Shown here: positions 21,386 to 52,045 of the stretch, piece after piece
How the letters are laid out: each line of letters starts with the position of its first letter
Numbering within the stretch: position 1 is the stretch's first letter
NCBI GenBank assembly: GCA_944387375.1
Contig: CALXEQ010000006.1
Location: 9,066 to 73,065 of the forward strand
Reading direction: 5' to 3'
DNA length: 64,000 nt
From: an uncultured Clostridia bacterium
GTDB taxonomy: Bacteria; Bacillota; Clostridia; TANB77; CAG-465
Notes under the pieces: model-generated
The model's database searches: none
Told to the model about the DNA's origin: nothing
Seen by the model: only the letters and a program-made list of their open reading frames with translations
Program-made: the position numbers and the translations under genes

Positions 21386-21389
21386 AGAG

Positions 21390-21534
21390 TATATCAGTAC
21401 ATTTTGTACTGATATTTTTTGCATAAAAAAACAAGTAACTTTAATAAGCTACTTGTTTTACCATTTTACTGGAGCTGAAACTCAGATTCGAACTGAGGAC
21501 CTACGGTTTACAAGACCGTTGCTCTACCAGCTGA
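21390..21534. repeat. Direct repeat copy 2 (145 bp)
   Basis: Matches 19792-19936; includes the hairpins ATATCAGTAC/GTACTGATAT and AAACAAGTA/TACTTGTTT. Confidence 0.95.
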
Positions 21535-21545
21535 GCTATTCCAGC
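21470..21545 (-). tRNA. tRNA-Thr(UGU)
   Basis: GCTGGAATAGCTCAGCTGGTAGAGC...CT-TGT-AA...GTTCGAATC...CCA, 76 nt. Confidence 0.97.
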
Positions 21546-21559
21546 AATATACTTTTAAA

Positions 21560-21634
21560 TGGTGACCCGTAGGAGAGTCGAACTCCTCACTCCGCCGTGA
21601 AAGGGCGATGTCTTAACCGATTGACCAACGGGCC
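21560..21634 (-). tRNA. tRNA-Glu(UUC)
   Basis: GGCCCGTTGGTCAATCGGTTAAGAC...CT-TTC-AC...GTTCGACTC...CCA, 75 nt. Confidence 0.97.
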
Positions 21635-21641
21635 CCATTTG

Positions 21642-21717
21642 TGGTGAGCCATCGCAGATTCGAACTGCGGACAACTTGATTAAAAGTCAAGTGCTCTGCC
21701 AACTGAGCTAATGGCCC
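21642..21717 (-). tRNA. tRNA-Lys(UUU)
   Basis: GGGCCATTAGCTCAGTTGGCAGAGC...CT-TTT-AA...GTTCGAATC...CCA, 76 nt. Confidence 0.97.
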
Positions 21718-21760
21718 ATCAAAGTATATTACAATCAGTTTCACAACTGACTGCGCATAT

Positions 21761-21789
21761 ATAATACTACAAATTGAAACCGTTGTCAA
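21761..21789 (-). promoter_or_regulatory. Sigma-A promoter of the tRNA Lys-Glu-Thr operon
   Basis: Minus strand TTGACA-N17-TATTAT with an A-rich UP element. Confidence 0.75.
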
Positions 21790-22147
21790 TACTTTTTTAA
21801 GAAAAAAGTAAAAAAATGCAAAAAATGTAAATAATAATATTCTACATATATTATATATCAAAAAATCTAGTTTTAGAATATTATTTAAAAAATATTGTAT
21901 GTTATATTCTATGATGTTAATATTATTTACGTGATTCAAATAATTAATGTATTTATTCTAAAAATTTTATTCTAAATTATTTATTCTATAATTTTTTTAT
22001 TTTTAATATATTTTTTCTTTAAATGTATTTTCTTGTGATATGTAAAATGGGAGGATAAGCATATATGCTAAATACATTTGCAACTTTGTTTTTTGCACAA
22101 TAAATTATTTGAATCACATGTTATTTTTTAGAAAGGTGTGTGATAAT

Positions 22148-22471
22148 ATGAAATTAAAATTTTTACTGTGTATTATGTGTATAAGTATGTCTATTATTTT
22201 CTCATATAGTGTATATGCAGCATCGTCTACACCTACTTTAGTTACTAAAATTAATTCTGCTTTTACTAAGATACAAGGTTATTTAGAAAAAATAGCTACG
22301 CCTATTGCTGGAGTATGTATTGCTAGTGGATTTTTGATAAGAAAACTTAGTTTGGGAGATGAGCAGAAAATGATAATGGGAAAAAGGATAATAATTAATA
22401 GTATTGTTGGGTATGCTGGTATTAGATTGTTAGATATAATTATAAAATTTGTAGAAACTGTAGTTAAATAA
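22148..22471 (+). CDS. TrbC/VirB2-like (T4SS pilin-like) protein
   Basis: Signal peptide ending VYA, amphipathic helix, two hydrophobic helices split by a GDEQK...GK loop; GAAAGGTG RBS. Confidence 0.6.
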   Translation: MKLKFLLCIMCISMSIIFSYSVYAASSTPTLVTKINSAFTKIQGYLEKIATPIAGVCIASGFLIRKLSLGDEQKMIMGKRIIINSIVGYAGIRLLDIIIKFVETVVK

Positions 22472-23268
22472 TGGAAGAACTGATTGAAAATATAAGCTCT
22501 ATAATTAGCAAACTATATTTATCTGTAGAAAATAAAGGATATGACATTTTAATGAAAATATCCGATATATCAGAAAATTTGTTCTCACAAAATCCTTTAA
22601 ATATTATATATAATGATACATATAGGATTTATATAGATTTGTTTATAAAAGTTGTTATATTTAGTTTTTTTATATTTTATTTTTTAAAATTATTATTATA
22701 TTTATATAGTGAAAACGGTATTGAGAATTTATATTACTTTATAATTAAAGTTATAATAGTATTGATTTTAAGTAGCAACTCATATTATATTTGTCAAAAA
22801 GCTGTATATTTTAATTTTTTGCTTACAGATACTATATCTAAATCTTTAGAAAATATAGCAAATATAGATATTAGTTATAATTATATAAAAGAAGAGAAAT
22901 ATTCTTTGCAAGAAATAATAGAATTTGATGATAAAACAAATATTGAAGGAGTTATAGATATTATAATATCTTTTTTTGTTATTAATATGATAATATTTCT
23001 TTGTGTAAGGTATGTAGTTGTAATACTAAGTATATTAATTTCCCCTTTTTCATTCTTAATGATTTTATCTAAAGAAACAAGAAAATTATTTTTCATTTGG
23101 CTTAAGTGTTTGGTATTTAGTCTTTTAATTCAAGTTGTTAATAAGATACTTCTTTTTATTATAATTATTTCTAAAGATAATAAAGAAATGTTTAGTGCTA
23201 TTTTAATTGGAACTCTTTTTATAATGTATAGATTAAATAGGAGCTTTTTATATGCAAAGGATAAATAA
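22471..23268 (+). CDS. TrbL/VirB6-like polytopic membrane protein
   Basis: 5-6 TMs with R-YVVVILSILISP-FSF...W-LK...LLIQV pattern typical of Gram-positive TrbL/VirB6; translationally coupled to the pilin-like gene. Confidence 0.55.
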   Translation: MEELIENISSIISKLYLSVENKGYDILMKISDISENLFSQNPLNIIYNDTYRIYIDLFIKVVIFSFFIFYFLKLLLYLYSENGIENLYYFIIKVIIVLILSSNSYYICQKAVYFNFLLTDTISKSLENIANIDISYNYIKEEKYSLQEIIEFDDKTNIEGVIDIIISFFVINMIIFLCVRYVVVILSILISPFSFLMILSKETRKLFFIWLKCLVFSLLIQVVNKILLFIIIISKDNKEMFSAILIGTLFIMYRLNRSFLYAKDK

Positions 23269-23590
23269 ACAAAAAACTTTTAATTTCTTCAAAAGAAAGA
23301 GTAAATGGCTGGGACTAATAGATTATAAGACCTTAACTTTTTTTATAATATATATTTTGATTGTAGTAAAAATTTTAAGTATAATTAATATTTCAAATAT
23401 ATTAAAATTATATATTTTTATTTATTTAGTTATTCCATTTATTATATTTATTCTGTTGAATATAAAAGAGGAAAGTATAATAGATAAATTATTTGTTATA
23501 TTAATATTTTTTATAAAAAGAAAAAAATTTATAAAGTTAAAAAATTATGCTAAACTTAACAAAAAGTATTTAAAAAATGTAGAAAAATAG
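23252..23590 (+). CDS. PrgI/VirB3-like small membrane protein
   Basis: K-W-LGLI-DYKTL, two TM helices and a basic F-IKRKK tail, the PrgI-like layout. Confidence 0.5.
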   Translation: MQRINKQKTFNFFKRKSKWLGLIDYKTLTFFIIYILIVVKILSIINISNILKLYIFIYLVIPFIIFILLNIKEESIIDKLFVILIFFIKRKKFIKLKNYAKLNKKYLKNVEK

Positions 23591-23662
23591 TATATTGTAA
23601 AATAGAAAATAAAGTGGTATAATAATCACCTAGATGTAATAAGAATTATAGGAGATTTTTTT

Positions 23663-24628
23663 ATGAAATTTATAATGAAAAATAAACTGGAACTAGGAGA
23701 TACATTAGTGCCAGATTTGTTTATTATTAACAATATGAAAAATTTGCAGGGAAATGATATTAAGGTTTATATTTATATTCTATACTTATTAAAAAAAGGT
23801 GATGAAATAGATTTAAATGATTTAGCAAAGGACTTGGATTTAACAGATAAAGAATTAAAATCTAGTTTGGAAGTATTGCAAGCAGAAGAATTAATAATTA
23901 AAAATTCGCAAGGATATAATGTTATAGATCTTAAAGAAATAGAAATAAATAAATCCTATACTCCAAAATTTGAAACTAAGGTAAATAGGCAATCTGTTAC
24001 AGAGCAACGAAGAAAAGCAGCGGCAGAAGCTATAAGTGAAAGCTTCTTTAATGGTGTTATGACTCTGGGATGGTATACAGATATAGGAAATTTATTTAAA
24101 TCGTATGCTTTTTCTGAAGATGTAATGATTGCATTATTTCAGTATTGTAAAGAAAGAAGAGCTTTAAATAAAAAGTATGTTTATGCGGTTGCAGAAACAT
24201 GGCATAATGGAGGAGTAAAAACTTTTGAACAACTTGAGAATTTTTTAGAAATGTATGATAAATTTACTAAAATTAAACAAAAAATTGTAAAAGCTTTAGG
24301 ACTTAGAAGAAATCTTTCAAAATATGAGGAAGTATATATAAAAAAATGGATTGAAGATTATAAATATGAGTTTGATATTATAGAAGAGGGATTAAAACGA
24401 AGCACGTCTACAACCAATCCATCAATAAAATATGTTGATGCTATAATAACTAGTTGGCATAATAAAGGATATACTAAAGTAGAAGAGATACAAAATGAGG
24501 AAAATATTCAAAAAGTTAATGATGAGAAAAAAGAAGTAAAAAAAGTTTCTGAATCTAAGAAAAAAAGTTATCAGAGTTATTCTCAAAGAGAGTATGATGC
24601 TTCAGATGATTTTTATGACGAGATATAA
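23663..24628 (+). CDS. DnaD domain replication protein
   Basis: N-terminal wHTH (IKVYIYILY) and two DnaD motifs (YVYAVAETW; YVDAIITSW). Confidence 0.85.
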   Translation: MKFIMKNKLELGDTLVPDLFIINNMKNLQGNDIKVYIYILYLLKKGDEIDLNDLAKDLDLTDKELKSSLEVLQAEELIIKNSQGYNVIDLKEIEINKSYTPKFETKVNRQSVTEQRRKAAAEAISESFFNGVMTLGWYTDIGNLFKSYAFSEDVMIALFQYCKERRALNKKYVYAVAETWHNGGVKTFEQLENFLEMYDKFTKIKQKIVKALGLRRNLSKYEEVYIKKWIEDYKYEFDIIEEGLKRSTSTTNPSIKYVDAIITSWHNKGYTKVEEIQNEENIQKVNDEKKEVKKVSESKKKSYQSYSQREYDASDDFYDEI

Positions 24629-24646
24629 GAGGGAGGGTAGAGTCAT

Positions 24647-25651
24647 ATGCAAAATACTGTTTTTAGAAAGGTTGAAAGAGATTATAATTTAAAAAGGCAA
24701 CGTGCTCAAAATGATGCTAAGTTGTATAAGAAAAATGTATATGACGAAAATCCAATATTGCAAGAAATAGAAGATGAAATTAATATGATTTCTTTAAAAT
24801 CAGCTAAAGCAAGGATTTTTTCAGATGATTTAAACAGAAGAAAAGAACAAGAAAAATTAGAATATAAGTTAAATAAATTAAATTGTAAATATGATGATGA
24901 ACTAAGAAAAATAGGGCTTACTAGAGAGGATTTTAAACCTAAATATGAATGCACTAAATGTAATGATACTGGTTTTTGTGACAATAAAATGTGTAGTTGC
25001 TTTAATCAAGAGTTAATAAATGAATCCTTTAAACAATCAAATTTAGCTAAGATAAAAGAAGAAAATTTTGAAACTTTTGATTTTGGATATTATTCTACTT
25101 GTAATAATAAGGAAAAGTATGGAATAGAAAAATCTCCACTTGAAAATATAGATGGTATTAGAAGACTTGCGTATAAATTTTCACATAGTTTAAATGATCC
25201 TGAACAAAAAAACTTGTTATTTACCGGTAGTACAGGACTTGGAAAAACATTTTTAGCTAATTGTGTGGCGTCAGAAGTTATAAAACACGGAAAATCTGTA
25301 ATATATCAAACAGCACCGATTTTATTGGATAAAATGGTAGAATATAAATTTAAATTTAATAAAACAGAATCAGATATTGAAGATTATGATAAGATTTTTG
25401 ATGTAGATTTATTAATAATAGATGATTTAGGAACTGAAGCTATGAATAGTGCTAAGTTTAGTGAATTATTTAATATATTAAATACCAGAATACTAAGAAA
25501 TAAGAAAATACTTATATCTACTAATTTGACACCTCAAGAGATAAAAAGAGAATATGAAGAAAGAATATTTTCTAGATTTGTAGGTGACTTTATAATTTGT
25601 AGATTTGTAGGAGAAGATATAAGGATTTTAAAGAAAAAAATGATGAAATAA
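24647..25651 (+). CDS. DnaC/DnaI-like helicase-loader AAA+ ATPase
   Basis: CTKCNDTG...CSC Zn site, GSTGLGKT, LLIIDDLG, STN, RIFSR. Confidence 0.88.
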   Translation: MQNTVFRKVERDYNLKRQRAQNDAKLYKKNVYDENPILQEIEDEINMISLKSAKARIFSDDLNRRKEQEKLEYKLNKLNCKYDDELRKIGLTREDFKPKYECTKCNDTGFCDNKMCSCFNQELINESFKQSNLAKIKEENFETFDFGYYSTCNNKEKYGIEKSPLENIDGIRRLAYKFSHSLNDPEQKNLLFTGSTGLGKTFLANCVASEVIKHGKSVIYQTAPILLDKMVEYKFKFNKTESDIEDYDKIFDVDLLIIDDLGTEAMNSAKFSELFNILNTRILRNKKILISTNLTPQEIKREYEERIFSRFVGDFIICRFVGEDIRILKKKMMK

Positions 25652-25777
25652 AAAATAATTAAAGCAGAAATATTTTTAAAATTTAAGAATATTTTTGCTT
25701 TTTTTGACTTTTGTGATATAATACTATGCGTATTTTAAACATCATGGACGAATAATAATTTATGAGGAAGTGATAAA

Positions 25778-26545
25778 ATGAATAATTTTAATTTTTATGT
25801 TTTAGGAAATCATTCTCCCAATATCAGAATGTTTGGAAAGTATAAATGTACTTGCTATATGCTTAATGGATTTAGTAAAAATATATTTTTAGATTTTGGT
25901 GCTGGAATATTTTTAAAATTTTTAAGACTTATTAAAAGAGAAAAAATAGATATAAATAATATTATGATTATTATATCTCATAATCATTTAGATCATAATT
26001 TATCACTTATGTTATTTGCAATATATTTGTGGGTATATAATTTATTTCATAGAAAAAATAAAAAGGTAAATGTTATTTTACCTAATAATAATTTTATGTA
26101 TAAGTTTGTTAAGTTATTTAAAAATGAATATGAAGTGAACATACTTACAAAAGATATTAAATTTGATATGGATGGTTGTAAGTTTAGTTTTTGTGAGACT
26201 ATTCATAAAGGCGGCTCTTATGCAACTAAAATAGAAAATGAAAATGGTATTTTTATTTATGTTTCAGATTTAGCTAAAGTATCTAAACCGTTATCAAGCT
26301 TTGTAAAAAATGCAAATGTTGTTATGGTAGATTCAGGATATCCTTTTAAAAAGTTAGATTCTTTTTTAGATTATCATGGTATGACACAGGATATAATGTA
26401 TGATTTATATGAATGTAATATAAAAAAGATTTTAGCAACACATCTTAGAATATGTTATAAAAAGGAAAATTATATTCAGAAATTCCCAGAAAAAGCAAAT
26501 GTTAAGTTGGTAAGGGAGAATAGTACATATAATTTATTTAAATAA
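25778..26545 (+). CDS. Metallo-beta-lactamase-fold hydrolase (RNase Z-like, divergent)
   Basis: LDFGAG, SHNHLDH, TIH, YVSD, YHG, ATH motifs. Confidence 0.75.
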   Translation: MNNFNFYVLGNHSPNIRMFGKYKCTCYMLNGFSKNIFLDFGAGIFLKFLRLIKREKIDINNIMIIISHNHLDHNLSLMLFAIYLWVYNLFHRKNKKVNVILPNNNFMYKFVKLFKNEYEVNILTKDIKFDMDGCKFSFCETIHKGGSYATKIENENGIFIYVSDLAKVSKPLSSFVKNANVVMVDSGYPFKKLDSFLDYHGMTQDIMYDLYECNIKKILATHLRICYKKENYIQKFPEKANVKLVRENSTYNLFK

Positions 26546-26575
26546 AGCACCTCAGTACATATGAGGCGCTTTTTT
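26545..26575. terminator. Bidirectional terminator
   Basis: AAAGCACCTCA...TGAGGCGCTTTTT. Confidence 0.7.
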
Positions 26576-27500
26576 AATAATTATATTCTTCACGTTTTCT
26601 TTCTATTTTTAGTAGTTGTTCGTAAAGTTTTTCTTCTCTCTCAGAGATGTCGTCAGGTAAGTCTATATGAACTTTTAAATTTAAGTCTCCTCTTTGACCG
26701 TCTTCTTTAATATAGCCTTTGTTTGGAACAGTTACTATTTCTCCATCTCTTAGATGTTTAGGTAGTGACACAAATAATTTTTCATCCATTACTTGTAATT
26801 TATATTTACCTCCAAGAGCTGCTACTGCTGGAGTTATATCTATTTCTTTTATTAGATCCGATCCTGCTAATTTAAATTCATCATTTTCAAGGAGATTTAC
26901 ATGTATTATTAAGTCTCCATTTTTTCCACCATTTTTTCCAGGGTTACCTAAAGCGGCAAGTCTTATTTTATCACCACTTTTTATTCCGATAGGCACTTTT
27001 ACAGAAAAAGTTTTCATTCCTGTTCTATATGCTTTAATTGCAATCTTTTTTTCGGCACCAAAAAATCCTTCTTCTAATGTAACATCAAGATGAGTTACAA
27101 TGTCAGTACCTTTTATAGGTTTTTGTTTTCTTTCAACACTATCTATATCATTATTATTTTGTGCAGATGAATCTTTTCTAAGTCCAAGTATTTGATTTAA
27201 TAAGTCATTGAAAACATTTGCACCAGATTTAAATTCATATTTTACATCTTGTAGTCCTGATTCTAAGTTAGCAAACCCATATCCATATTTAGCAACTTGT
27301 CTATCATATTTTCTTCTTTTTTCAGGATCCATTAAAACTGCATAAGCTTCATTTATGTCTTTAAATTTGTCTTCAGCTTCAGCACTTTTGTTTTTATCTG
27401 GATGATACTCTTTAGCAAGTCTTCTAAAGTTAAGTTTTATGTCTTGAACAGAACTTTTTCTGTTTACTTCCAATATTTCATAATAGTTTTTGTATTTCAT
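26574..27500 (-). CDS. DnaJ class B co-chaperone (CbpA-like, no zinc finger)
   Basis: J-domain with HPD and DnaJ C-terminal domains (GDLIIHV, GDLNLKV). Confidence 0.88.
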   Translation of the reverse strand: MKYKNYYEILEVNRKSSVQDIKLNFRRLAKEYHPDKNKSAEAEDKFKDINEAYAVLMDPEKRRKYDRQVAKYGYGFANLESGLQDVKYEFKSGANVFNDLLNQILGLRKDSSAQNNNDIDSVERKQKPIKGTDIVTHLDVTLEEGFFGAEKKIAIKAYRTGMKTFSVKVPIGIKSGDKIRLAALGNPGKNGGKNGDLIIHVNLLENDEFKLAGSDLIKEIDITPAVAALGGKYKLQVMDEKLFVSLPKHLRDGEIVTVPNKGYIKEDGQRGDLNLKVHIDLPDDISEREEKLYEQLLKIERKREEYNY

Positions 27501-27632
27501 ATAGTACCCCTTTAAAAACTAATAGTTTAACTGTTTTTTATTATATCATATTTAATGTAAAATTCAAGATTATTAACTTGCTTTTTTATTTTTTTTTTAG
27601 TATAATATGGGAGTGAAAACACAAACGGAGGT

Positions 27633-30098
27633 ATGAATATAATGGACATTAATGATGAAAATTTTTTATCGGCACAAAAAATTGTACCTGTAAAAATAGA
27701 AGATGAAATGAAAAGATCATATATTGATTATGCAATGAGCGTTATAGTTTCTCGTGCTTTACCGGATGTAAGAGATGGTTTAAAACCTGTTCATAGAAGA
27801 ATATTATATGCTATGAATGATTTAGCTTTATGGCCAGATAAACCATATAGAAAATCTGCAAGTATAGTTGGAGAAACTATGGGTAATTACCATCCACATG
27901 GTGATGCTGCTATATATGATGCTTTGGTTCGTCTATCACAAGATTTTTCACTAAGATATCCTCTAGTTGATGGACACGGTAACTTTGGTTCAATAGATAA
28001 TGATCCACCAGCTGCAATGAGATATACAGAAGCTAAATTGCATAAAATAGCATTAGAAATGTTAGCAGATTTAGATAAAGACACAGTAGATTTTGTACCA
28101 AATTATGATGATAGACTAAAAGAGCCATCTGTATTGCCAGCAAAACTACCATATTTATTAATAAATGGTGCTTATGGTATTGCTGTTGGTATGGCATCTA
28201 ATATACCACCTCATAATTTAACAGAAGTTGTAAATGGAATTGTTGCTCAACTAGACAATCCTGATATAACAAATGAGGAATTAATGCAATATATAAAGGG
28301 ACCAGATTTTCCGACTGCTGGTGTAATAGTTGGAAAAGAAGGGATTAAAGAGGCATATACAACAGGAAGAGGAAAAGTATGTCTAAGAGCTAAAGCAGAA
28401 ATTGAAGAAGATAGTAGAGGAAGATACAAAATAATAGTTACAGAAATTCCTTACCAAGTAAATAAAGCTGCTTTAATTCAAAACATAGCAAAACTTGTAC
28501 AAGTTAAAACTATAGAAGGAATCTCAGATTTACGAGATGAATCAGATAGAGAAGGCGTACGAATAGTTATAGAATTAAAAAGAGATGCAAATCCAAATGT
28601 TGTATTAAATATGCTATACAAACATACACAACTTCAAAATACGCAAAGTATGTTAATGCTTGCTATTGTAAATGGTGTTCCTAAAGTATTAACTTTGAGA
28701 GAAATACTTGCAGAATATATAAAACATAGAGAGCAAGTTGTAGTAAGAAGAACAAAATTTGATTTAAATAAAGCTGAAGCAAGACTTCATATCTTAGAAG
28801 GATTAAGAATTGCTATTGATCATATAGATGAAATAATCAAAATTATTAGAAATTCATATGATAATGCCGCTCAAAATTTAATGGAAAGATTTGGACTTAG
28901 TGAGATTCAAGCTCAAGCTATTCTTGAAATGAAACTTAGAACATTACAAGGATTGCAAAGAGAAAAAATTGAGCAGGAGTATAATGAACTTGTAGCTTTA
29001 ATAAAACACTTAAAAGATATTTTGGCATCAGAGCAGTTGGTTAAAGATATAATAAAAGAAGAAGTTATAGAATTAAAAAACAAATATGGTGATGAACGAA
29101 GAACATCTATTACTCATGGTGTTGGAGATATAGATGTAGAATCTTTAATAAAAGAAGAGACAAATGTAGTTACTCTTACTCATTTTGGATATATAAAAAG
29201 AATAGCTGCAGATGTTTATAGAAGTCAAAGACGTGGTGGAAAAGGTTTAACTGCTATGAACACGCGTGAAGAAGATTTTGTTGAGCATCTATTTATCACA
29301 TCAACACATAATAGTTTAATGTTTTTTACAAATACTGGTAAAGTATTTAGATTAAAAACATATGAACTTCCAGAAGCAAGCAGAACTGCAAAAGGAACAG
29401 CAATTGTAAATTTATTACAACTTTCACAAGGTGAAAAAATTGCTGCCGTTATGCCTGTTGAAAAATTTGATAATGATTCATTATATGTTCTTATGGCTAC
29501 AAGTAATGGCTTAATAAAAAAGACAAAATTATCTGAATATGCAAATATAAGAAAAACTGGTATACAGGCTATTACTTTAAAGGAAAATGATGAGTTAATT
29601 GATGTAAGACTTACAGATGGTAATAATGAGATTATAATGGTTACAAGACATGGACTTTCAATTAGATTTAAAGAGGAAGAAGTAAGAGCTGTTGGTAGAA
29701 CATCTATGGGTGTAAAAGGAATAGAACTTGCCAAAGATGATAAAGTTGTTGGTATGGAACCAATAAAAGAAGATAATGGATATGTATTAACAATTACAGA
29801 AAATGGATTTGGTAAAAGAACAGAACTTGAAGAATATAGATGTCAAGGAAGAGCTGGAAAGGGTGTTCTTACATATAAAATCACAGCCAAAACAGGTAAC
29901 ATTGTTGGAGTAGAAATTGTAGATGATGACGATGATGTTATGATGATAACAGATAATGGAATTATTATAAGAATAAATGTAAATGATATAAGTATCTTAG
30001 GAAGAAATACACAAGGTGTAACACTTATGAGAACTTCTGATGGAGGAAAATTGATAAATATAGCTAAACTTCCAAATGAAGAGCAGGAAGAAAACTAA
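27633..30098 (+). CDS. gyrA: DNA gyrase subunit A
   Basis: [22 protein letters not shown] and GyrA-box QRRGGKG. Confidence 0.97.
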
Positions 30099-30288
30099 TA
30101 TAGATAATTAGTAAAAGAGCAATATTTTTACATATTGCTCTTTATATTTGCAAAAAATAGATATTATGGTATAATATATGAGTAATGTAAATTATTAATT
30201 TATTGGCTAAATAGTTATGAAAATTTACATAAATGTATAAAAATACAGTAATTTATGTTATAATATATTTATTAAAGGAGGAATCTGT

Positions 30289-31473
30289 ATGTTTGAGTTT
30301 AGTCCAAAAAACATGAAAAAGATTCTACTTATAGTAACTTATGCAATTGTTTTATGCTTGGCACTATTAAATTTAGATGTTGTTTTTAAAGTGTTTGGAT
30401 ATCTTTTTAATTTGTTAAAACCATTTATATTTGGTTTTTGTTTAGCATTTATTTTAAATATACCTTTAAGCAAATTTGAAAGTATAGTTAATAAAATGAA
30501 AAGCAAAAAAGGTAAAAAATCTAAAGATATTAGAAAAAATCATCCTGAAAAGAAAAATACTAAGTTAAGGCTTTTAGGAATATTAATTTCATTATTGATT
30601 TTTATAGGGATAATTTGTTTAACTATGTTTTTAGTTATTCCAGAAATTATTAATACATTTAATATTTTTAAAGAAAATATTCCTACAGCTTTTGCTAAAT
30701 GTCAAGAATGGTTTGCAGATATGATGTCAAACTATCCAGATATTTTTGAAAAAATAAAATCTTATACTCCAGATTGGCAGGCAATAGATGCTGACGTGAC
30801 TAATATAATTAAAAATGCTGCCACAGGTATAATTGGTGGTTCAATTAGATTTATTATAGGAATATTTAGTGGTGTATTTAATTTCTTTATGGGACTTGTA
30901 TTTGCTATTTATATGTTAATGCAAAAAGAAACATTAGTAAGACAATTAAAAAAATTAGTTAATGCATGTATGCCTGAAAATAAGGCTAATAAACTACTTT
31001 ATATAGGTAAAATAACAAATAATACTTTTAAGAAATTTTTTGGTGGACAATTTATTGAAGCAATACTACTTGGAGTTTTATGTTTTATAGGAATGCAAAT
31101 ATTTGGTATGCCATATGCATTAACAATATCAGTATTAATTGGTGTAACTGCACTTATTCCAGTATTTGGTGCTTTTTTTGGAACAGCTATTGGTGCAATA
31201 TTAATACTTGCAGTAAATCCAATGCAAGCATTATGGTTTGTTTTATTTATTATAATATTACAACAAATAGATGGAAATTTAATATATCCAAAAATAGTTG
31301 GAGATTCTGTAGGTTTACCTGGAATTTGGGTAATGCTTGCAGTGCTACTTGGAGGAAACAGTCTAGGAATTTTGGGAATGCTTGTTGCAGTACCAATTGC
31401 ATCAGTAATATATAAGTTAATACAAGAAAAAGTTAATAAAAATAAATCGATGGAACAAGTAAAGGTGGAATAA
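30289..31473 (+). CDS. AI-2E family transporter
   Basis: LIPVFGA, QQIDGNLIYPKIVG, GILGMLVAVP. Confidence 0.9.
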   Translation: MFEFSPKNMKKILLIVTYAIVLCLALLNLDVVFKVFGYLFNLLKPFIFGFCLAFILNIPLSKFESIVNKMKSKKGKKSKDIRKNHPEKKNTKLRLLGILISLLIFIGIICLTMFLVIPEIINTFNIFKENIPTAFAKCQEWFADMMSNYPDIFEKIKSYTPDWQAIDADVTNIIKNAATGIIGGSIRFIIGIFSGVFNFFMGLVFAIYMLMQKETLVRQLKKLVNACMPENKANKLLYIGKITNNTFKKFFGGQFIEAILLGVLCFIGMQIFGMPYALTISVLIGVTALIPVFGAFFGTAIGAILILAVNPMQALWFVLFIIILQQIDGNLIYPKIVGDSVGLPGIWVMLAVLLGGNSLGILGMLVAVPIASVIYKLIQEKVNKNKSMEQVKVE

Positions 31474-31514
31474 TCCACCTTTATTTTTTAATTAAAGTAT
31501 GATATAATATAATT

Positions 31515-31844
31515 ACTTTAGTATCTCAGATGATCGCTTGTTTATACAAGAGGAAAGTCCGGACACTATAGAGCAGGGTGCTAGATAACGTCTAGTGGGA
31601 GTGATCCTAAGGAAAGTGCAACAGAAAATAACCGCTATATAATAGCAAGGGTGAAAACGCGAGGTAAGAGCTCACGAACAGCTATGGAGACATAGATGTG
31701 GTGTAAACCCCACCTAGTGCAACACCAGAATAAAAGGCTAAGATTGCTCGTCATCTTTTGAGTTGGTGGCTTGAAGTATATAGTGATATATACTCTAGAT
31801 AAATGATCATCAAATACAGAATCCGGCTTATGAGATGCTAAAGT
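31515..31844 (+). ncRNA. rnpB: RNase P RNA, bacterial type A
   Basis: GAGGAAAGTCC, GGAAAGTGCAACAGA, GGGTGAAA, ACAGAATCCGGCTTA; P1 helix ACTTTAGTATCTCA/TGAGATGCTAAAGT; TATAAT at 31503 and a downstream terminator. Confidence 0.97.
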
Positions 31845-31883
31845 TAAAAGAGGTCCTAATTTTAGGACTTTTTTTATTTTTTG

Positions 31884-31912
31884 TTGACATATAAAAATAA
31901 AAGTGATATTAT
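31884..31912 (+). promoter_or_regulatory. Sigma-A promoter of the ClpX-like gene
   Basis: TTGACA-N17-TATTAT with TG extension. Confidence 0.65.
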
Positions 31913-31963
31913 AAGCCTACGTAAAATAAAAAATACCTAAATTTTAGTAAAGGAGGGGTTTTT

Positions 31964-33310
31964 ATGAGTAATAAATCCAAAGTTATAAGATGTACTCTTT
32001 GCAAAAATGTAATTTCTCCAGTTGAAAAAATACATGATATAGTTTATGGAGATGAAAAAAGAGGATTTCTTTGCGATAACTGCTATAAAGATTTACAGCA
32101 ATATTTTATTGAAAAATTTGAAAACATGATGGATGCATTATATCAAGCAGGCTTTTATTCTGAAGACTACGATGAAAAATATGATAGTTTTCAAGAAGAT
32201 ATTAATGAGCAAAAATTATTTAATAATAATTTCTCTAATAAAGCTACACATTCTATTACATCAAAAAATAATAAAAAGAAAAGTGACAAAATTAATCCAA
32301 AACAAATATTTAACAACGTGACAAAGGCAATTGTTGGTCAAGATGAAGCTATAAAAGAAATTATTACAACAATAATAAGAAATAATACTACTTCTAATCC
32401 ACAATTTAAAAGTAATATATTTTTAATTGGAGAAAGTGGAAATGGTAAAACGGAAAGTATAAAGCAAATAGCTAATCAATTGGATATCCCTTTTGTGATA
32501 GAAGATGCTTCAAAATATACACAGGAAGGATATGTTGGAGTAAGTGTTGAACAAGCTGTAGTTAATTTAATAAATGCTTCAGGTGCAGATTTAGTAAAAG
32601 CATCTAGAGGAATTATTGTTTTTGATGAAATGGATAAAAAGACTGATAGTGGAAATAGAGAAAGTGGGGTTGCAACAACAAGTGTTCAAGAAAGCTTATT
32701 AAAACTTGTTGAAGGATCTACGGTTATGACTACTGTTGGGCTTTTTGATACAAGTCTTGTTACTTTTATATTTATTGGAGCTTGTGAAAATGTATATTTA
32801 GCAAGAGAAAAAAGACTTGGAAAAAAAGAAATAGGTTTTAAAACTAGTTATGAAAATAAAAATCATAATGAGGTATTGCTTAATAAGAGTAAAAATCCAC
32901 ATTTTTTACCAGATGATTTAATAAAAGCAGGATTTAAAACCGAGCTTGTTGGAAGAATAGATAAAATTATAGAATTTAGAAGTATGACTGAAGAGATTGC
33001 AGTAAGAATATTATTAGAGTCTACAAATTCTATTTTTAAATTTTATATTAAGGAATTAGCTAATTTGGGAGTAAACGTAAAGATAGAAAATGAAATAAAA
33101 GTTATAAATCATATTGCAAAACGAGCAGTAAAACTAAAAATGGGTGCAAGAGGGCTGCGTCAAATTGTAGTAGATATGTTTTCTAATATATACTCAGAAA
33201 TTTTGCTAAAAGATATAAAATTAAATGAAAAATATGATTGTATTATAACAGAAGATACGGTATATAATAATAAAAAATTCAAATTATGTAAAAAAGAAGT
33301 TAAAATTTAG
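31964..33310 (+). CDS. Divergent ClpX-like AAA+ ATPase
   Basis: N-terminal CxxC..CxxC, VGQDEA, GESGNGKT, pore loop GYVG, DEMDK, VQESLLK, IGF loop, GARGL. Confidence 0.85.
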   Translation: MSNKSKVIRCTLCKNVISPVEKIHDIVYGDEKRGFLCDNCYKDLQQYFIEKFENMMDALYQAGFYSEDYDEKYDSFQEDINEQKLFNNNFSNKATHSITSKNNKKKSDKINPKQIFNNVTKAIVGQDEAIKEIITTIIRNNTTSNPQFKSNIFLIGESGNGKTESIKQIANQLDIPFVIEDASKYTQEGYVGVSVEQAVVNLINASGADLVKASRGIIVFDEMDKKTDSGNRESGVATTSVQESLLKLVEGSTVMTTVGLFDTSLVTFIFIGACENVYLAREKRLGKKEIGFKTSYENKNHNEVLLNKSKNPHFLPDDLIKAGFKTELVGRIDKIIEFRSMTEEIAVRILLESTNSIFKFYIKELANLGVNVKIENEIKVINHIAKRAVKLKMGARGLRQIVVDMFSNIYSEILLKDIKLNEKYDCIITEDTVYNNKKFKLCKKEVKI

Positions 33311-33410
33311 TTGTAAACAAAATATAAATAAATGTCAATATTATTGACATTTATTTTTTTTTATAATAAAATTAGAATAGTATTATTTTAACAAGATGGG
33401 AGGTCTTTTT

Positions 33411-34106
33411 ATGGAATTTAAAGCTTTAGAAGGAAAAAATGTAGAAATACAAGTAGGAGAAAACAAATATATTAGACATGCAATTCAAACACACTATGTA
33501 CAATTGGGAGAAAGCTATGTAGATTTAATAAAAAAATATGTTGTTCCTATTTATGAGGAAGGAGATATAGTATCTATAAGTGAGAAGATAATAAGTCTTT
33601 GCCAAAGAAGAATTGTATATAAAAAAGATGTAAAAGTAACAGGACTTGCAAAATTTCTATCTAAATTTGCAATGAGAAGTGATGCAGGTGTTGGTGTTGA
33701 TAATCCATATAAAATGCAATTTGCAATCAATTTATGTGGACGATTAAAAGTAATTTGGGCAGCTATTGCAGGTGGAGTATGTAAATTATTTGGAAAAAGA
33801 GGCGTATTTTACGAGATAGTAGGCCAAGAAGTTAGTGGACTTGATGGATTTTATGGAAATGTATTTTCAGATTATGCTGAATTTGGTATCAGAATACCTG
33901 AAAATTCAACAGGAGTATGTAATGAAATATATGAGGCAACTGGTGTTAAATGTATGATTGTAGATGCAAATGACTTTAATGTTGAAATTTTAGGTAAAGC
34001 AGACAGTATAGAGTATGATGATGCTGAGCTTAAAGGAATGGTTAAAGATAATCCTGCAGGTCAAGCTAAGACACTTACACCAATGGTATTAGTTAGAAAA
34101 GTTTAA
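33411..34106 (+). CDS. CofE/F420-0:gamma-glutamyl ligase-like protein
   Basis: GDIVSISEKIIS, IVDAND, DNPAGQ...TP motifs. Confidence 0.7.
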   Translation: MEFKALEGKNVEIQVGENKYIRHAIQTHYVQLGESYVDLIKKYVVPIYEEGDIVSISEKIISLCQRRIVYKKDVKVTGLAKFLSKFAMRSDAGVGVDNPYKMQFAINLCGRLKVIWAAIAGGVCKLFGKRGVFYEIVGQEVSGLDGFYGNVFSDYAEFGIRIPENSTGVCNEIYEATGVKCMIVDANDFNVEILGKADSIEYDDAELKGMVKDNPAGQAKTLTPMVLVRKV

Positions 34107-34128
34107 TATATAAAAGAGAGGTTGGAAT

Positions 34129-34656
34129 ATGGAAAGTTTATTACAAATGAATAAATTTGAAGTAATTGATATGCCAGGAATGAACACTTTAGCATTTTTA
34201 ATTGAAAAGGATTACGATGCTTATGCACAAGGATATTCTTTATTATCTTTGGAAAAAATTAGAAGTGTTGAGGTAGAAGAAGAAGGAAAAATAAAAAAGA
34301 TATTTAATGTGTTAGTAGAAGAAGAAAATGAAATTAACGATATAATTTTATTAACACTTACAGATAGGAAGGCTTTTTTAAGTACTGGTGTTTTGGATAG
34401 TCAAGGCTTTAGAACAGAAGAGACTAACATTCCATTAAGTTATGGTTCGATATATAACATAGAAGGTGTAGAATATAAAGAGGTAAATTATACACCAGAT
34501 ATGAAAAGAAATTTTTCAATTATTGATTCACAAACAGGTGAAGAAGTAAAACCTTCTTTATATAAAGATGAGACAACAGGTCAAATAAAAGGTAGATGTA
34601 AAATCATGCCTAATAGACCATATATTGTTTTAGAAGTTAGATTTGAAGAAGATTAA
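34129..34656 (+). CDS. Hypothetical acidic cytoplasmic protein
   Basis: 175-aa ORF with GAGG RBS, between the cofE-like gene and virD4. Confidence 0.75.
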   Translation: MESLLQMNKFEVIDMPGMNTLAFLIEKDYDAYAQGYSLLSLEKIRSVEVEEEGKIKKIFNVLVEEENEINDIILLTLTDRKAFLSTGVLDSQGFRTEETNIPLSYGSIYNIEGVEYKEVNYTPDMKRNFSIIDSQTGEEVKPSLYKDETTGQIKGRCKIMPNRPYIVLEVRFEED

Positions 34657-34676
34657 TTTATGAAGGGAGTATAAAA

Positions 34677-34892
34677 ATGAGTGAAGAAAAAGAAAGCAAA
34701 TATGTAGAGTCAAAAATGACAATACGTGGAGTTGCAGGAACAGTAAATGGTAAAAGTTTTGATGAAATAAATAAGGTAGAAGTAAGAGGAAAGTTTCACG
34801 CACCTAAAGGAACATTAGAAAAAGCAAAAGCTGCTGCAAAATTAAAATACAATAAAAATATAGATGAAGAAGAAAAAAATATATGTAGATAA
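34677..34892 (+). CDS. Small hypothetical protein
   Basis: 71-aa ORF with AAGGGAG RBS, immediately upstream of virD4. Confidence 0.7.
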   Translation: MSEEKESKYVESKMTIRGVAGTVNGKSFDEINKVEVRGKFHAPKGTLEKAKAAAKLKYNKNIDEEEKNICR

Positions 34893-34931
34893 AGAAATGG
34901 AATTATAGAGTAATATAGAGGGGTATATGGA

Positions 34932-37040
34932 ATGAGAGGATTTTTTGAGGATTTAAAAAGCAAAGCAGCAATACTTGTTATTATTGCTTTAGTAGCTTCT
35001 GTAGTTTTGGGAGGTTCTTTAACTAAGTCAATAGTAGACGCAAATGCTTCGGGAGCAGAATCTATAATTTATGAAGTGTTTAAAACATGGATGGGAAATA
35101 TTACAGATTTTTCTTTTTTGGCTGGTATGTTTAGTGATTTTGGATTGTTTTTACAAATTACATTTTGGATTTTTGTTATAGTGTTTGGAATATATGTAGT
35201 TGTAAAAATTCAAAATGCTGGAAAGAGTGAATATGAAGGCAGAGAAAATGGTTCAAGTCATTGGAGTACTGGAGGAGAAGAATATAGAAAAAGATCTGAT
35301 GGAAAAGAGATCTTAAATAGAAAAGAAGGTTTTATATTAAGTAGAAATCATTATTTAGGAACAGATTTAAAGAAAGTTATTATAAATAAGAATGTATTAG
35401 TTGTTGGTGGATCTGGTTCTGGTAAAACTGCTTGTTATATAAAGCCTAATATATTACAGTGTTTAGGTTCATATGTTATAACAGACCCAAAAGGAGAGTT
35501 ATATAAAGAAACATCTAAATTTTTACAAAGTGAAGGATATGACATAAAAGTATTTAATTTGGTAAATCCAAAATTTAGTGATTTTTACAATCCATTATTT
35601 AATATTTGTTCAGAGCAAGATGTTGATACTTTAGCTCATATTTTGGTAACTGGTGTAAAAAAAGAAGGTGGCGGAGATGATCCGTTCTGGGAAGACACTG
35701 CTAAAATGTTAATAAAAGCAGCAATTTATTATTCACTTTCTGTACTTCCAATGGAAGAACAAAATATAGGAAGTTGTATAAACCTTATTCGTCAAGGTGG
35801 AGCTGACGCATCTATTTTTGATAAATTATTTATAGATGAACTTAAACCAGAACATCCAGGAAGAAAAGAATATGAAAGCTTTAGAACTTCTGCAGATAAA
35901 ACAAAACAGAGTATAGTAATATCTGCTATTTCTAAAATGACTATTTTTGACTCAGGTCCTATTCAAAGAATTACATCATCAAATAATATAGATTTTAGAC
36001 AAATTGCAATGAAAAAGACAGCAATATATGTAATTACATCTGCTGCAGAAAGTACATATGATTTTGTATCAACTATGTTCTTTAGTCAGATGTTTTCTAT
36101 ATTGTATAAACAAGCAGATGATTATGGTTCAAGACTTCCAAATCAAGTGTATTTCTTACTTGATGAATTTGCAAATATTGGTCAAATACCAGATTTCCAA
36201 AAGAAATTAAGTACTACAAGAAGTTTGGGAATAAGTGTATCAATTATTGTTCAGTCACTAGATCAATTAGAAGGATTATATAAAGAGTCATATGAAAATA
36301 TTTTAGGTAACTGTGATACTCAAATTTTACTTGGTACAAATTCACAAAAAACAGCTGAATATTTTTCAAAGAGTTTAGGACAGACAACAATAAAGATACA
36401 ATCAAAATCTATAAATAAAGATAAGACAGAAAGTCAAAAGCAAGGTGTTTCTATTAGTACTCAAAAACAAGCAAGAGATTTAATGACTGTAGATGAAATT
36501 AGAAGAATGGATAATAACAAAGAGATACTTATGGTAAGAGGATTAAAGCCTATCCTTGCAGAAAAAGCTTGGTATTTTAAATATCATCCAAAACGTAAAA
36601 TTGCTGACGGATTTACTATTGCAGATATTACTGAAATGCCTATACCAGAAGAAATACCATATAGATTTTTTGATGTTCAACAGCATTTAATAGAAAGAAA
36701 AAGAAAAGCACAAGAAATATTAAAAGCAAGATCAAAAGAAGTAGATATTGACACATCATCTTTTAACGGTTCTAGTGCTAATGACAACACGACATCACCT
36801 AAAAAGAAATATGCTAATAGTAATGAGTTAGATATAGATACAAACGAGGATAAACCTGTTGCAGAGGGACTTGGAAAGCCATCTTATAATGATTTATATG
36901 AAAACAGTGATATTGATCCAATATCTCATGTAGATGAGAAAAAAGGTAAAAAAGAAGATGATGATTTTGATTTACAATCAGAATTAGAATCTAAATTTGA
37001 TAAACTTTTTGGAAAAGCTAATAAAAATAGTAATGTTTAA
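34932..37040 (+). CDS. virD4: VirD4/TraG-type type IV coupling protein
   Basis: N-terminal TMs, GSSHW, Walker A GGSGSGKT, DPKGEL, Walker B LLDEFAN, QSLDQL, acidic C-terminal tail. Confidence 0.92.
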   Translation: MRGFFEDLKSKAAILVIIALVASVVLGGSLTKSIVDANASGAESIIYEVFKTWMGNITDFSFLAGMFSDFGLFLQITFWIFVIVFGIYVVVKIQNAGKSEYEGRENGSSHWSTGGEEYRKRSDGKEILNRKEGFILSRNHYLGTDLKKVIINKNVLVVGGSGSGKTACYIKPNILQCLGSYVITDPKGELYKETSKFLQSEGYDIKVFNLVNPKFSDFYNPLFNICSEQDVDTLAHILVTGVKKEGGGDDPFWEDTAKMLIKAAIYYSLSVLPMEEQNIGSCINLIRQGGADASIFDKLFIDELKPEHPGRKEYESFRTSADKTKQSIVISAISKMTIFDSGPIQRITSSNNIDFRQIAMKKTAIYVITSAAESTYDFVSTMFFSQMFSILYKQADDYGSRLPNQVYFLLDEFANIGQIPDFQKKLSTTRSLGISVSIIVQSLDQLEGLYKESYENILGNCDTQILLGTNSQKTAEYFSKSLGQTTIKIQSKSINKDKTESQKQGVSISTQKQARDLMTVDEIRRMDNNKEILMVRGLKPILAEKAWYFKYHPKRKIADGFTIADITEMPIPEEIPYRFFDVQQHLIERKRKAQEILKARSKEVDIDTSSFNGSSANDNTTSPKKKYANSNELDIDTNEDKPVAEGLGKPSYNDLYENSDIDPISHVDEKKGKKEDDDFDLQSELESKFDKLFGKANKNSNV

Positions 37041-37046
37041 AAAAAT

Positions 37047-37092
37047 GACTTATAAGTATATGTAGTATATACATAACTTATAAGTCTTTTTA
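37047..37092 (+). terminator. Intrinsic terminator after virD4
   Basis: GACTTATAAGT...ACTTATAAGTCTTTTT. Confidence 0.7.
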
Positions 37093-37156
37093 TTTTTATT
37101 TATTGTAATTTATGTATTTATATAGTATAATTTATTTGTAAATTGGAGGATAATAT

Positions 37157-37846
37157 ATGGATAAAGTAAAAGGAATAGCTATAATTATTGTTGCTATTGT
37201 TTCTGTAATAGTGACTGTATTAGTAGCTAATATTTTGCTAGATACAACGGGAAAAGTAAATCAAGGAAATTTTAGAATAAGTGATTTAGTAGTCAGATCA
37301 AGTGCTGATGTAAAGGAAGTTCAAGATGAGAATATAGAATTAAAAAAACTTTCTGATATGATTTTTGATATAACTCAAACAAACCAAATATCTATTTTAA
37401 TAGATCCAAATGTTAAAGCAAGTAGTATAAGAATTGAAAATTTAAATATTTCTGATCCAGCATTAAAAGGAAATATGCAAATATATCAGACTAAAGATAA
37501 AAAATATGATGTAACACCTGAGTTAAAAAGTATAGATTTAGATTTACAGCAAGAAGAAGAAAAATATGTAGTAAATTTATATATAAATAATAATAATGTT
37601 TTAACTAATCAAAAAGTAGATGAAACTGTAGAAACTATACAATATGATGCAACTATGTTTAAGACGTTAGGATATGATATTTCTTCTTTAAAGTTTAATG
37701 TTTCTTTTGACTTATTAATTACAGATGAATCAGGAAATACTGTAAAAACATCTATATCATTAAATATGCCTACAGATGAAACTGTAGAAGCTGGTATGTC
37801 AATATTAAAACAAGATACATCGAATTATATTTTTACTATTATTTAA
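37157..37846 (+). CDS. Hypothetical single-TM membrane protein with a beta-rich extracellular domain
   Basis: GGAGG RBS, N-terminal hydrophobic helix. Confidence 0.75.
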   Translation: MDKVKGIAIIIVAIVSVIVTVLVANILLDTTGKVNQGNFRISDLVVRSSADVKEVQDENIELKKLSDMIFDITQTNQISILIDPNVKASSIRIENLNISDPALKGNMQIYQTKDKKYDVTPELKSIDLDLQQEEEKYVVNLYINNNNVLTNQKVDETVETIQYDATMFKTLGYDISSLKFNVSFDLLITDESGNTVKTSISLNMPTDETVEAGMSILKQDTSNYIFTII

Positions 37847-37855
37847 GAATAGCTA

Positions 37856-37884
37856 TTGAATTTAAATAGAATATATTGTATAAT
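37856..37884 (+). promoter_or_regulatory. Sigma-A promoter of ffs/dnaX
   Basis: TTGAAT-N17-TATAAT. Confidence 0.65.
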
Positions 37885-37892
37885 AATCCTAT

Positions 37893-37969: not shown

Positions 37970-37988
37970 TTTTTGTGAGGTGAAAGAG

Positions 37989-52036: not shown

Positions 52037-52045
52037 GAGAGTGCT

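Follow-up and report, generated by a model that had tools for sequence, protein, structure and literature searches.

Archaeal Ced and Ted and the ComB system of Helicobacter are derived from type IV secretion systems (T4SSs) and serve DNA uptake or import; they consist of a minimal set of pilin-like, VirB6-like and VirB4-like parts, lack a relaxase and work for the cell. In Gram-positive bacteria, T4SSs are known almost only as the conjugation machines of plasmids and integrative conjugative elements (ICEs). The closest analogue in print is the chromosomal T4SS without a relaxase of the Patescibacteria (candidate phyla radiation, CPR), which was described by Quinonero-Coronel et al. (2025; PMC12102498) and is also treated in a review of December 2025 (PMC12857230). 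In the accessible part of the former article the coupling protein of Patescibacteria is encoded away from virB4 and is not essential, though the T4SS is; the rvh T4SS of Rickettsia is named as a dispersed exception, Ced is also mentioned, and Clostridia do not appear. The accessible part of the review describes the classical Gram-positive T4SSs as lacking pilins, VirB2-type pilins in Gram-positive T4SSs as known only from Patescibacteria, and a T4SS that works for the cell and may form pili as something that, among monoderms, only Patescibacteria have. Here we analyse a stretch of 64,000 nucleotides (the window) from an uncultured Clostridia bacterium (GenBank assembly GCA_944387375.1, contig CALXEQ010000006.1, positions 9,066 to 73,065), which carries a trio of genes for a VirB2/TrbC-like pilin, a VirB6/TrbL-like protein and a VirB3/PrgI-like protein next to dnaD and dnaC, and farther downstream a gene for a VirD4-type coupling ATPase (Table 1). 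We consider it likely that these genes belong to a domesticated, vertically inherited, conjugation-derived T4SS of the monoderm kind, similar to mating-pair-formation class FATA (MPF-FATA), which occurs throughout an order of small-genome gut Clostridia. The best explanation of the window is that it holds two of at least five chromosomal loci of this apparatus.

The pilin-VirB6-VirB3 trio

An earlier reading of this stretch (the original prediction) proposed T4SS-like parts in two intact operons about 11 kb apart, and both loci hold up: they lie on the plus strand, their open reading frames (ORFs) are intact, the gene calls were confirmed and the gap between them measures 11.3 kb. The first locus opens with the pilin gene, whose ATG at 22148 is preceded, 8 nt upstream, by the ribosome-binding site GAAAGGTG. 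Its product matches T4SS_pilin (PF18895) at 25.6 bits (cut-off 26.6) and TrbC (PF04956) at 25.0 bits (cut-off 27.9), both slightly below threshold, and was flagged above the cut-off at 26.6 bits in a six-frame search of the genome; all 18 orthologues (18/18) match T4SS_pilin at E ≤ 0.01, the best at 2.3e-7. The protein features a signal peptide and two hydrophobic helices joined by a short charged loop, with a conserved RKxSFGDEEK loop sequence, read by eye from the alignment.

The start of the second gene overlaps the pilin stop codon. The 265-aa window protein itself has no Pfam match and its profile matched no PDB sequence; TrbL/VirB6 (PF04610) is matched by nine of 19 orthologues (best 7.8e-7). 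The AlphaFold model (predicted local distance difference test, pLDDT, 82.5) aligns best with TrwI/VirB6 of R388 (Z 9.1, root-mean-square deviation (rmsd) 5.9, 230 residues), and TrwI chains occupy the top three ranks (Z 8.9-9.1, 229-230 residues aligned, rmsd 5.8-5.9), followed by unrelated rows at Z 7.3 with 134 residues aligned. For helical proteins a Z below 13 can reflect a common helix arrangement, so that the value of 9.1 lies below the decisive level; Foldseek gave the model an E of 0.024 and a template modelling (TM) score of 0.28 against TrwI. The third gene overlaps the second by 17 nt. Its 112-aa product likewise has no Pfam match of its own, and its orthologues give weak matches only, to PrgI (PF12666; 4 of 19, best 0.01) and VirB3 (PF05101; 2 of 19, best 0.0024). 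A profile-profile alignment (hhalign) of this family with the genome's own PrgI family, encoded in a cluster on contig C3, reached a probability of 92.4% (E 5e-7, 100 columns).

The dnaD gene begins 73 nt after the VirB3-like gene. It has a single tblastn match in the genome and thus no second copy, so that the initiation genes of the cell itself form part of the array. All loci compared (19/19, from five families) show the arrangement pilin-VirB6-VirB3-dnaD-dnaC with every gene in the same orientation; one locus has an additional ORF in front of dnaD. Consensus scans placed the first terminator-like site after 22148 at 26550-26566, beyond a gene for a metallo-beta-lactamase-fold protein, and a promoter-like site at 23595-23623 that could drive dnaD separately; no Spo0A box (TGNCGAA) was seen upstream of the pilin gene on reading 21700-22180. 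In 14 of the 19 trio loci, a coupling-type ATPase of 561-574 aa (TrwB_AAD_bind plus TraG-D_C) is encoded directly upstream of the pilin; these are all ten loci from other families and four from deeper members of the genus. This distribution suggests an ancestral operon in which a coupling-type ATPase was joined to the trio, which ties the trio to T4SS function and makes the window version a reduced one.

From 21200 to 22500, across the tRNA cluster, an AT-rich intergenic stretch and the complete pilin gene, identity to the closest relative (G024) is 98-100%, compared with 73-96% in the flanks, and the synonymous divergence (dS) of the pilin gene from that relative is 0.03 compared with 0.3-0.7 for its neighbours. 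From these identities, the 1.3-kb block looks like a recent recombination tract between two species.

The VirD4 module

The ATPase of the second locus scores 430.4 bits against the NF045973 equivalog ("VirD4-like, CD1115 family"; cut-off 250) and 284.5 bits against PF02534 (cut-off 20.1). It has an N-terminal membrane anchor and a conserved acidic C-terminal tail. The Walker A (G159, G160, G162, K165) and Walker B (D411, E412) residues are invariant in 19 sequences, in which a C-terminal motif (D680-G694) is also invariant; judged by its invariant Walker motifs, the window VirD4 is catalytically intact. In four loci (L043, L055, L059 and L060), VirD4 is divided between two overlapping ORFs, one for the membrane part (about 160 aa) and one for the ATPase part (464-520 aa). 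The latter begins just before Walker A in three of the four and is shorter in L060, where it begins further downstream; the split recurs in different families.

VirD4 is accompanied by p175, a soluble all-beta protein specific to the order: in an even draw across the class, its family was present in 10/10 genomes of the order and 0/289 outside. The N-terminal half (residues 3-93) of its model (pLDDT 87.8) is a generic immunoglobulin-like sandwich with Z ≤ 6.9 in a wide structure comparison; a profile search of the PDB gave a best E of 0.21, Foldseek no hit at E ≤ 0.001 and the ESM Atlas no usable match. Complex prediction of VirD4 with p175 scored 0.22 and 0.13 against a mark of 0.32, which speaks neither for nor against binding. 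Between the two genes, ORF lists covering 23 loci show a variable ORF of 51-202 aa; the 71-aa version in the window has no family match in Pfam or NCBIfam, and tblastn did not match it even in the closest relative. Upstream of p236, the consensus scan placed a promoter-like site at 33344-33372; from there to the end of VirD4 it showed no terminator-like site. The p236 gene, with a ratio of non-synonymous to synonymous substitution rates (dN/dS) of 0.015, heads the VirD4 operon in this genus only and is probably a passenger there. For p229, which has no family match in Pfam or NCBIfam, membership of the system is uncertain.

Loci at the genus level keep the series gyrA-AI2E-clpX-like-p236-p175-small ORF-VirD4-p229-dnaX-ybaB-recR. 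The core p175-small ORF-VirD4 recurs in all 14 loci from other families, where dnaJ often precedes it and SbcD/SbcC-like genes often follow. In none of the 37 loci inspected does VirD4 have a relaxase or channel gene as a neighbour; in the present genome, channel genes lie 11 kb away and on other contigs.

T4SS components elsewhere in the genome

The original prediction expected virB4 elsewhere in the genome, and two paralogues were found, VirB4-A on contig C3 and VirB4-B on contig C11. They were detected by PF12846, P-loop_TraG and NCBIfam models; PF03135 (CagE_TrbE_VirB) found no VirB4 in the genome, as this model misses Gram-positive VirB4. VirB4-A belongs to a 15-kb minus-strand cluster (C3:97255-112044) that also encodes three T4SS_pilin proteins, PrgI (34.1 bits, cut-off 27), membrane proteins including VirB6-like ones, a 478-aa protein (c478) and a 501-aa protein with a pilin-like segment (c501). 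A search proposed earlier for a CHAP hydrolase led to the same cluster, whose 1031-aa hydrolase combines lysozyme and CHAP domains. The cluster is flanked by a gene resembling a single-stranded-DNA-binding protein (SSB) with two oligonucleotide-binding (OB) folds and by pgi. Its core, pilins-PrgI-c478-VirB4-c501, is kept in 16/16 loci; the downstream parts diverge fast and, from this pattern, are probably surface-exposed. VirB4-B is followed by a gene for a MinD/tyrosine-kinase-like P-loop protein, and a second VirD4-like protein is encoded beside pth, rplU and rpmA.

The genome encodes ComEC (C2:83930-84700). No pilus ATPase of the T2SSE family (ComGA/PilB/TadA type) scored above cut-off in this 96.8% complete genome, which leaves the T4SS pilins as the sole pilus candidates found.

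Conservation, inheritance and selection

Close and distant relatives alike carry the genes in conserved synteny, which bears out the core status that had been proposed for them. VirD4 occurs in 40/41 relatives, with 58-90% identity within the genus and 42-51% in four other families. A family-profile search found the VirB6-like gene in 189/201 genomes of the order, 166/175 of the high-quality ones and 31/32 genera. VirB4-A, also in 40/41 relatives, is 63-95% identical overall and 63-69% between families; in the class draw it was found in 10/10 other genomes of the order, and outside it in 4/289 at E ≤ 1e-40 with 30-39% identity. The patchy presence and variable insertion site that mark an ICE are thus not seen, the trio being present in 189/201 genomes and fixed beside dnaD-dnaC in 19/19 loci.

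Vertical inheritance, which the original prediction had put up for a tree-congruence check, is supported by distances: across 17 genus-level loci, VirD4 distances track those of the core genes dnaX, recR and ybaB with a Mantel r of 0.93, a value reached by 0/2000 permutations, and VirD4 evolves at about the rate of dnaX. Comparison with the closest relative gave dN/dS values of 0.13 (pilin), 0.18 (VirB6-like protein), 0.125 (VirB3-like protein), 0.088 (VirD4) and 0.025 (p175), with gyrA at 0.039 and dnaD at 0.07 as references; pairs more distant than this are saturated. The trio and VirD4 genes are under purifying selection. In the same relative, which has a 1.6-Mb genome, the trio lies 134 kb and VirD4 148 kb from dnaA, and in a second one (G029) the trio lies 29 kb from dnaA. 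Such an origin-proximal position alone may explain the replication and repair genes in the neighbourhood.

Alternative interpretations

Several observations weigh against the view that the dispersed loci encode one domesticated machine in the service of the cell. That the dispersed parts assemble into one machine is a proposal; since they co-occur in nearly every genome, the phyletic pattern cannot link them. Neither the 265-aa nor the 112-aa window protein has a Pfam match of its own, and the pilin stays slightly under threshold. The operon structure of both loci comes from consensus-match scans only. The VirB6-like gene, found in 39/41 relatives, evolves fast (30-41% identity within the genus). 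This genome and its five closest relatives do not have the trio-linked ATPase; here the tRNA cluster occupies the place upstream of the trio. DprA was not found in the genome, which argues against classical transformation.

One genome (G036, 99% complete) is without VirD4 and p175 and keeps the trio and both VirB4 genes; VirD4 and p175 were lost together there, so that the VirD4 module is separable from the rest and dispensable for it. Such a loss is what would be expected if the VirD4 module acted alone as a membrane-anchored translocase of DNA or protein, for example in DNA pumping or DNA-end handling, unrelated to the trio and VirB4, in which case the loci would be several independent domesticated pieces. 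The module never stands beside channel genes in the 37 loci; its neighbours are SbcD/SbcC-like genes in other families and dnaX-ybaB-recR here, and the other families have a separate coupling-type ATPase right at the trio. The coupling protein of Patescibacteria, according to what is accessible of PMC12102498, is also encoded away from virB4 and is non-essential though the T4SS is essential. We found no positive evidence for a stand-alone role, and the genome retains complete channel sets. The loss of the trio-linked ATPase in this subclade, moreover, makes VirD4 a natural candidate to serve the trio. To our knowledge, the characterised VirD4-family proteins all act with a T4SS channel. We regard a VirD4 module working by itself as rather unlikely.

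A further difficulty for a single working machine is VirB4-B, which in this genome consists of two overlapping ORFs in different frames (C11:31344-33589) of 181 and 539 aa, compared with frames of 566-620 aa in relatives; the arrangement would be either a frameshift or a natural split, and it means that the set including the window trio may be eroding. Carried to its end, this thought would turn the loci into decaying remnants of an old ICE with no present function, a picture that agrees with the absence of relaxase, integrase and VirB4 at either window locus, with the loss of the trio-linked ATPase and with the fast divergence of the VirB6-like sequence. Against such decay, all frames of the two loci are intact, the genes sit at one site in 189/201 genomes, VirB4-A retains 63-69% identity between families and the Walker motifs of VirD4 are invariant. 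Relaxed selection, named beforehand, in combination with a genome-wide lack of VirB4, as a finding that would speak against the proposed system, was not seen (dN/dS 0.09-0.18). An ICE remnant was rejected on this conservation and purifying selection, and we hold decay without function to be highly improbable.

The original prediction noted no mobility genes nearby, and none of the 61 window ORFs scanned (23 + 38) belongs to an integrase, transposase, recombinase or relaxase family; among 16 proteins scanned from the C3 cluster, no relaxase or integration gene was found. Five relaxase families were searched in the whole genome. PF03432, PF02486, PF03389 and PF08751 gave no match, and the only relaxase found was one MOBV protein (Mob_Pre, PF01076; C4:112203-113291, 153.6 bits), located on another contig in a defence/mobile island. 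Its presence counts against a purely cell-serving machine, as does the fact that mobilisation of DNA in trans is left possible, MOBH, MOBC, MOBM and MOBB having been outside the search. The apparatus could then still be a conjugation machine that moves chromosomal or mobilisable DNA, such as the MOBV island, by means of relaxases acting in trans; the excisionase-like and Rep-like genes that accompany Mob_Pre, the placement of VirD4 in the CD1115 conjugal family and the location of the nearest homologues on Firmicutes plasmids fit this idea. The relaxase, on the other hand, belongs to accessory DNA on a different contig and the T4SS to the whole order; it is unlikely that a core machine at 63-95% identity is kept for sporadic islands, and neither an oriT nor accessory relaxosome genes were noticed at the loci. 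Conjugation through relaxases in trans therefore appears quite improbable to us.

The island itself (C4:100000-126000) encodes, besides the MOBV relaxase, restriction-modification, E1/JAB-like proteins of the type found in cyclic-oligonucleotide-based anti-phage signalling systems (CBASS), an OLD-like ATPase with a UvrD-like helicase, an excisionase-like helix-turn-helix (HTH) protein and Rep-like proteins; all functions except Mob_Pre were judged from N-terminal sequences only.

Proposed function

For the domesticated T4SS, we propose that the parts would assemble into one or two channels across the envelope, equipped with a VirB2-type pilus, in which VirB4 would energise assembly and VirD4 would feed in the substrate, and that this machine would serve the cell and not a mobile element. 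The substrate may be DNA that is moved without a dedicated relaxase, by import or export of chromosomal DNA between cells; we put this forward tentatively and with less than even confidence. The retention of VirD4, the position of parts near dnaD-dnaC, gyrA, dnaX-ybaB-recR, SSB and SbcCD, and ComEC without a T2SSE-family ATPase are consistent with DNA handling. Next in rank, and doubtful, comes contact-dependent protein delivery or host attachment, by analogy with Patescibacteria. The rapid evolution of the pilins and VirB6-like proteins next to a strongly conserved motor would fit a surface structure that meets other cells.

A bolder version of the proposal would have the order depend on a fixed, pilus-forming T4SS as Patescibacteria do, with the machine as a core organelle for cell contact through which DNA or other material would be taken up or exchanged, its lineage as sister or donor of the Patescibacteria T4SS, and its work coupled to replication restart and repair. 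We consider this combination improbable. If it were true, the placement beside dnaD-dnaC, SSB, gyrase, dnaX-recR and SbcCD would reflect the coupling of incoming DNA to replication restart and repair.

Genome context and other features of the window

Table 1. Positions of the genes and RNA genes discussed; entries with a contig prefix lie outside the window, and all others are window positions.
Feature	Position	Strand	Basis or remark
tRNA-Thr/Glu/Lys cluster	21470-21717	-	upstream of pilin
VirB2/TrbC-like T4SS pilin, 107 aa	22148-22471 (ORF from 22109)	+	sub-threshold Pfam matches and orthologues
VirB6/TrbL-like polytopic membrane protein, 265 aa	22471-23268	+	orthologue matches and predicted fold
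VirB3/PrgI-like two-helix membrane protein, 112 aa	23252-23590	+	profile-profile match to PrgI family
dnaD-like replication initiation protein	23663-24628	+	PF07261 (DnaB_2/DnaD) 6.9e-27
dnaC/dnaI-like helicase loader	24647-25651	+	NF005304 325 bits (cut-off 215); IstB and Bac_DnaA ATPase domains
class A RNase P RNA (rnpB)	31518-31845		RNA gene
CofE/gamma-glutamyl-ligase-like protein p236, 236 aa	33396-34106	+	weak PF01996 and TIGR04132 matches
p175, soluble all-beta protein, order-specific	34129-34656	+	adjoins VirD4 (upstream) in all loci inspected
small charged protein, 71 aa	34677-34892	+	position held by variable 51-202-aa ORF in relatives
VirD4-type coupling ATPase, 702 aa	34932-37040	+	PF02534 2.1e-84
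membrane-anchored p229, 229 aa	37157-37846	+	downstream of VirD4; genus-level synteny, 28-84% identity
signal recognition particle (SRP) RNA (ffs)	37890-37975		RNA gene
VirB4-A, VirB4-like ATPase, 664 aa	C3:106457-108451	-	P-loop_TraG 7e-17; CD1110 family 218 bits (cut-off 325)
second VirD4-like protein, 833 aa	C3:129518-132019		beside pth, rplU, rpmA
VirB4-B, 539-aa ORF	C11:31970-33589		preceded by 181-aa ORF matching N-terminal part of VirB4 models

The source assembly comprises 1.54 Mb in 25 contigs at 26% GC with 96.8% completeness, and the genomes of the order, from uncultured gut Clostridia, are small (0.9-2.1 Mb). The window genes are nearly all housekeeping genes on the plus strand (mutS, mutL, miaA, ksgA, gyrA, dnaX, ybaB, recR, murI, htpG and others). 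The interleaving of the T4SS loci with essential genes that was noted originally is real for dnaD, the dnaC-like gene, gyrA and rnpB, and ffs, dnaX and recR also lie nearby. The statement that there is no obvious compositional break stands as well: GC falls to 0.205 at 22001-24000, over the trio only, against about 0.26 for the window and the genome, a mild dip where the encoded proteins are hydrophobic. A class A RNase P RNA together with 26% GC raised the question of a wrong genetic code or a CPR origin, which was dropped because table 11 translates every gene without interruption and the same contig carries spore cortex-lytic genes. Most sequencing runs that contain window DNA are metagenomes of chicken gut. 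Part of 28000-37900 also occurs in six metatranscriptome runs, most of them from the same habitat, with best shares of 0.69 and 0.53; such shares alone are no evidence of transcription.

Between rnpB and the VirD4 operon, at 31964-33310, lies a gene for a ClpX-like ATPase that scores 189 bits against the ClpX equivalog (cut-off 359) and changes rapidly (dN/dS 0.24, with 71% identity to the closest relative); judged by these values, the gene probably encodes a divergent paralogue of ClpX. Upstream of the trio region, at 16071-17996, two tandem paralogues (319 and 321 aa) with 30% mutual identity and no Pfam family are a conserved feature of the genus. The segment 18660-20856 holds a gene of the beta-lactamase family, a tRNA-like fragment with a weak score (19875-19933, 30.8 bits) and a gene for a C39-like peptidase that is split into two overlapping ORFs (20259-20615 and 20581-20856); its genes have no tblastn match in the corresponding locus of the closest relative, though the genes on either side match, and it looks like a small indel with a broken gene. 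A 754-aa protein of no known family is followed by a 76-aa coiled-coil-like ORF at 49772-52276, and a similar pair of 555 and 79 aa occurs 26 kb downstream on the same contig (contig positions 84849-86739), the N-termini of the small ORFs being alike.

Comparison with known systems

The claim of an undescribed system stands for Clostridia as far as the literature search reached, and gives way where Patescibacteria are concerned, since a close analogue from that group is in print. The search found no paper on such a T4SS in Clostridia, the supplements of PMC12102498 being outside it; for PF18895 and T4SS_pilin it returned the Patescibacteria paper and a structure-clustering preprint, none on Clostridia. 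If the domesticated T4SS is real, the cell-serving monoderm type extends beyond CPR bacteria to an order of ordinary Firmicutes common in animal guts, and the Clostridia version would be a possible evolutionary source of the CPR system. It supplies defined genes with which to study what gut anaerobes of reduced genome size exchange with neighbouring cells, and it calls for caution in annotation, as in this lineage these T4SS genes do not mark mobile elements. The scattered T4SS with its trio in a dnaD-dnaC operon points to a cellular job that is not described in this bacterial group.

Rickettsia rvh resembles the present system in its distribution over several chromosomal islands, its duplicated components and its vertical inheritance. 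However, rvh is a diderm P-type system that delivers effectors into eukaryotic cells, and the kinship is at the superfamily level only. Ced/Ted and ComB share with the present system a minimal set of parts without a relaxase, and ComEC occurs here without a type IV pilus ATPase. Unlike in Ced, VirB4-A is only a weak CedD match (31.8 bits, cut-off 600), no other Ced family was matched and no DprA was found.

Kinship with the conjugative T4SSs of Firmicutes (CD1110/CD1115 of CTn2, Prg of pCF10, Tcp of pCW3, Con of ICEBs1) is evident from VirD4, which passes the CD1115 equivalog, from VirB4-A, whose best family is CD1110 (218 bits), and from PrgI, the VirB6-like proteins and the CHAP/lysozyme proteins. 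The nearest plasmid homologues are found in Firmicutes for VirD4 (at most 40.7% identity over 64% of its length) and show about 40-42% identity for VirB4-A, with a maximum of 41.6% in Clostridium. The gene order of the C3 cluster resembles that of the Clostridium beijerinckii plasmid cluster whose VirB4 gives this 41.6%; the small ORFs of the plasmid cluster have no pilin or PrgI Pfam match. The present system differs from these conjugative T4SSs in having no relaxase, oriT-processing or integration genes at its loci, a position fixed across the order, a VirB4-A below the CD1110 cut-off (218 vs 325 bits) and pilins, the last being a contrast with the classical systems as characterised in the accessible part of PMC12857230.

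The closest likeness is to the T4SS of Patescibacteria, as far as the accessible parts of the two articles describe it. Both have a monoderm MPF-FATA-type set (VirB4, VirD4, VirB3 and VirB6 or proteins like them, and a VirB1-like hydrolase) with arrays of VirB2-like pilins matched by PF18895/PF04956; both are chromosomal and lineage-wide in small-genome bacteria, without a relaxase at the clusters and with the coupling protein away from virB4, and the loci are origin-proximal, as the distances from dnaA in the closest relative (134 and 148 kb) illustrate. The differences lie in the host, a spore-forming Clostridia lineage and not CPR; in the number of parts, with at least five loci, a pair of VirB4 paralogues and as many as three paralogous coupling-type ATPases; and in the joining of pilin-VirB6-VirB3 to dnaD-dnaC and the order-specific VirD4 partner p175. 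What is new is thus a domesticated monoderm T4SS in Bacillota, dispersed, rich in paralogues and wired to dnaD-dnaC, of a kind known from Patescibacteria.

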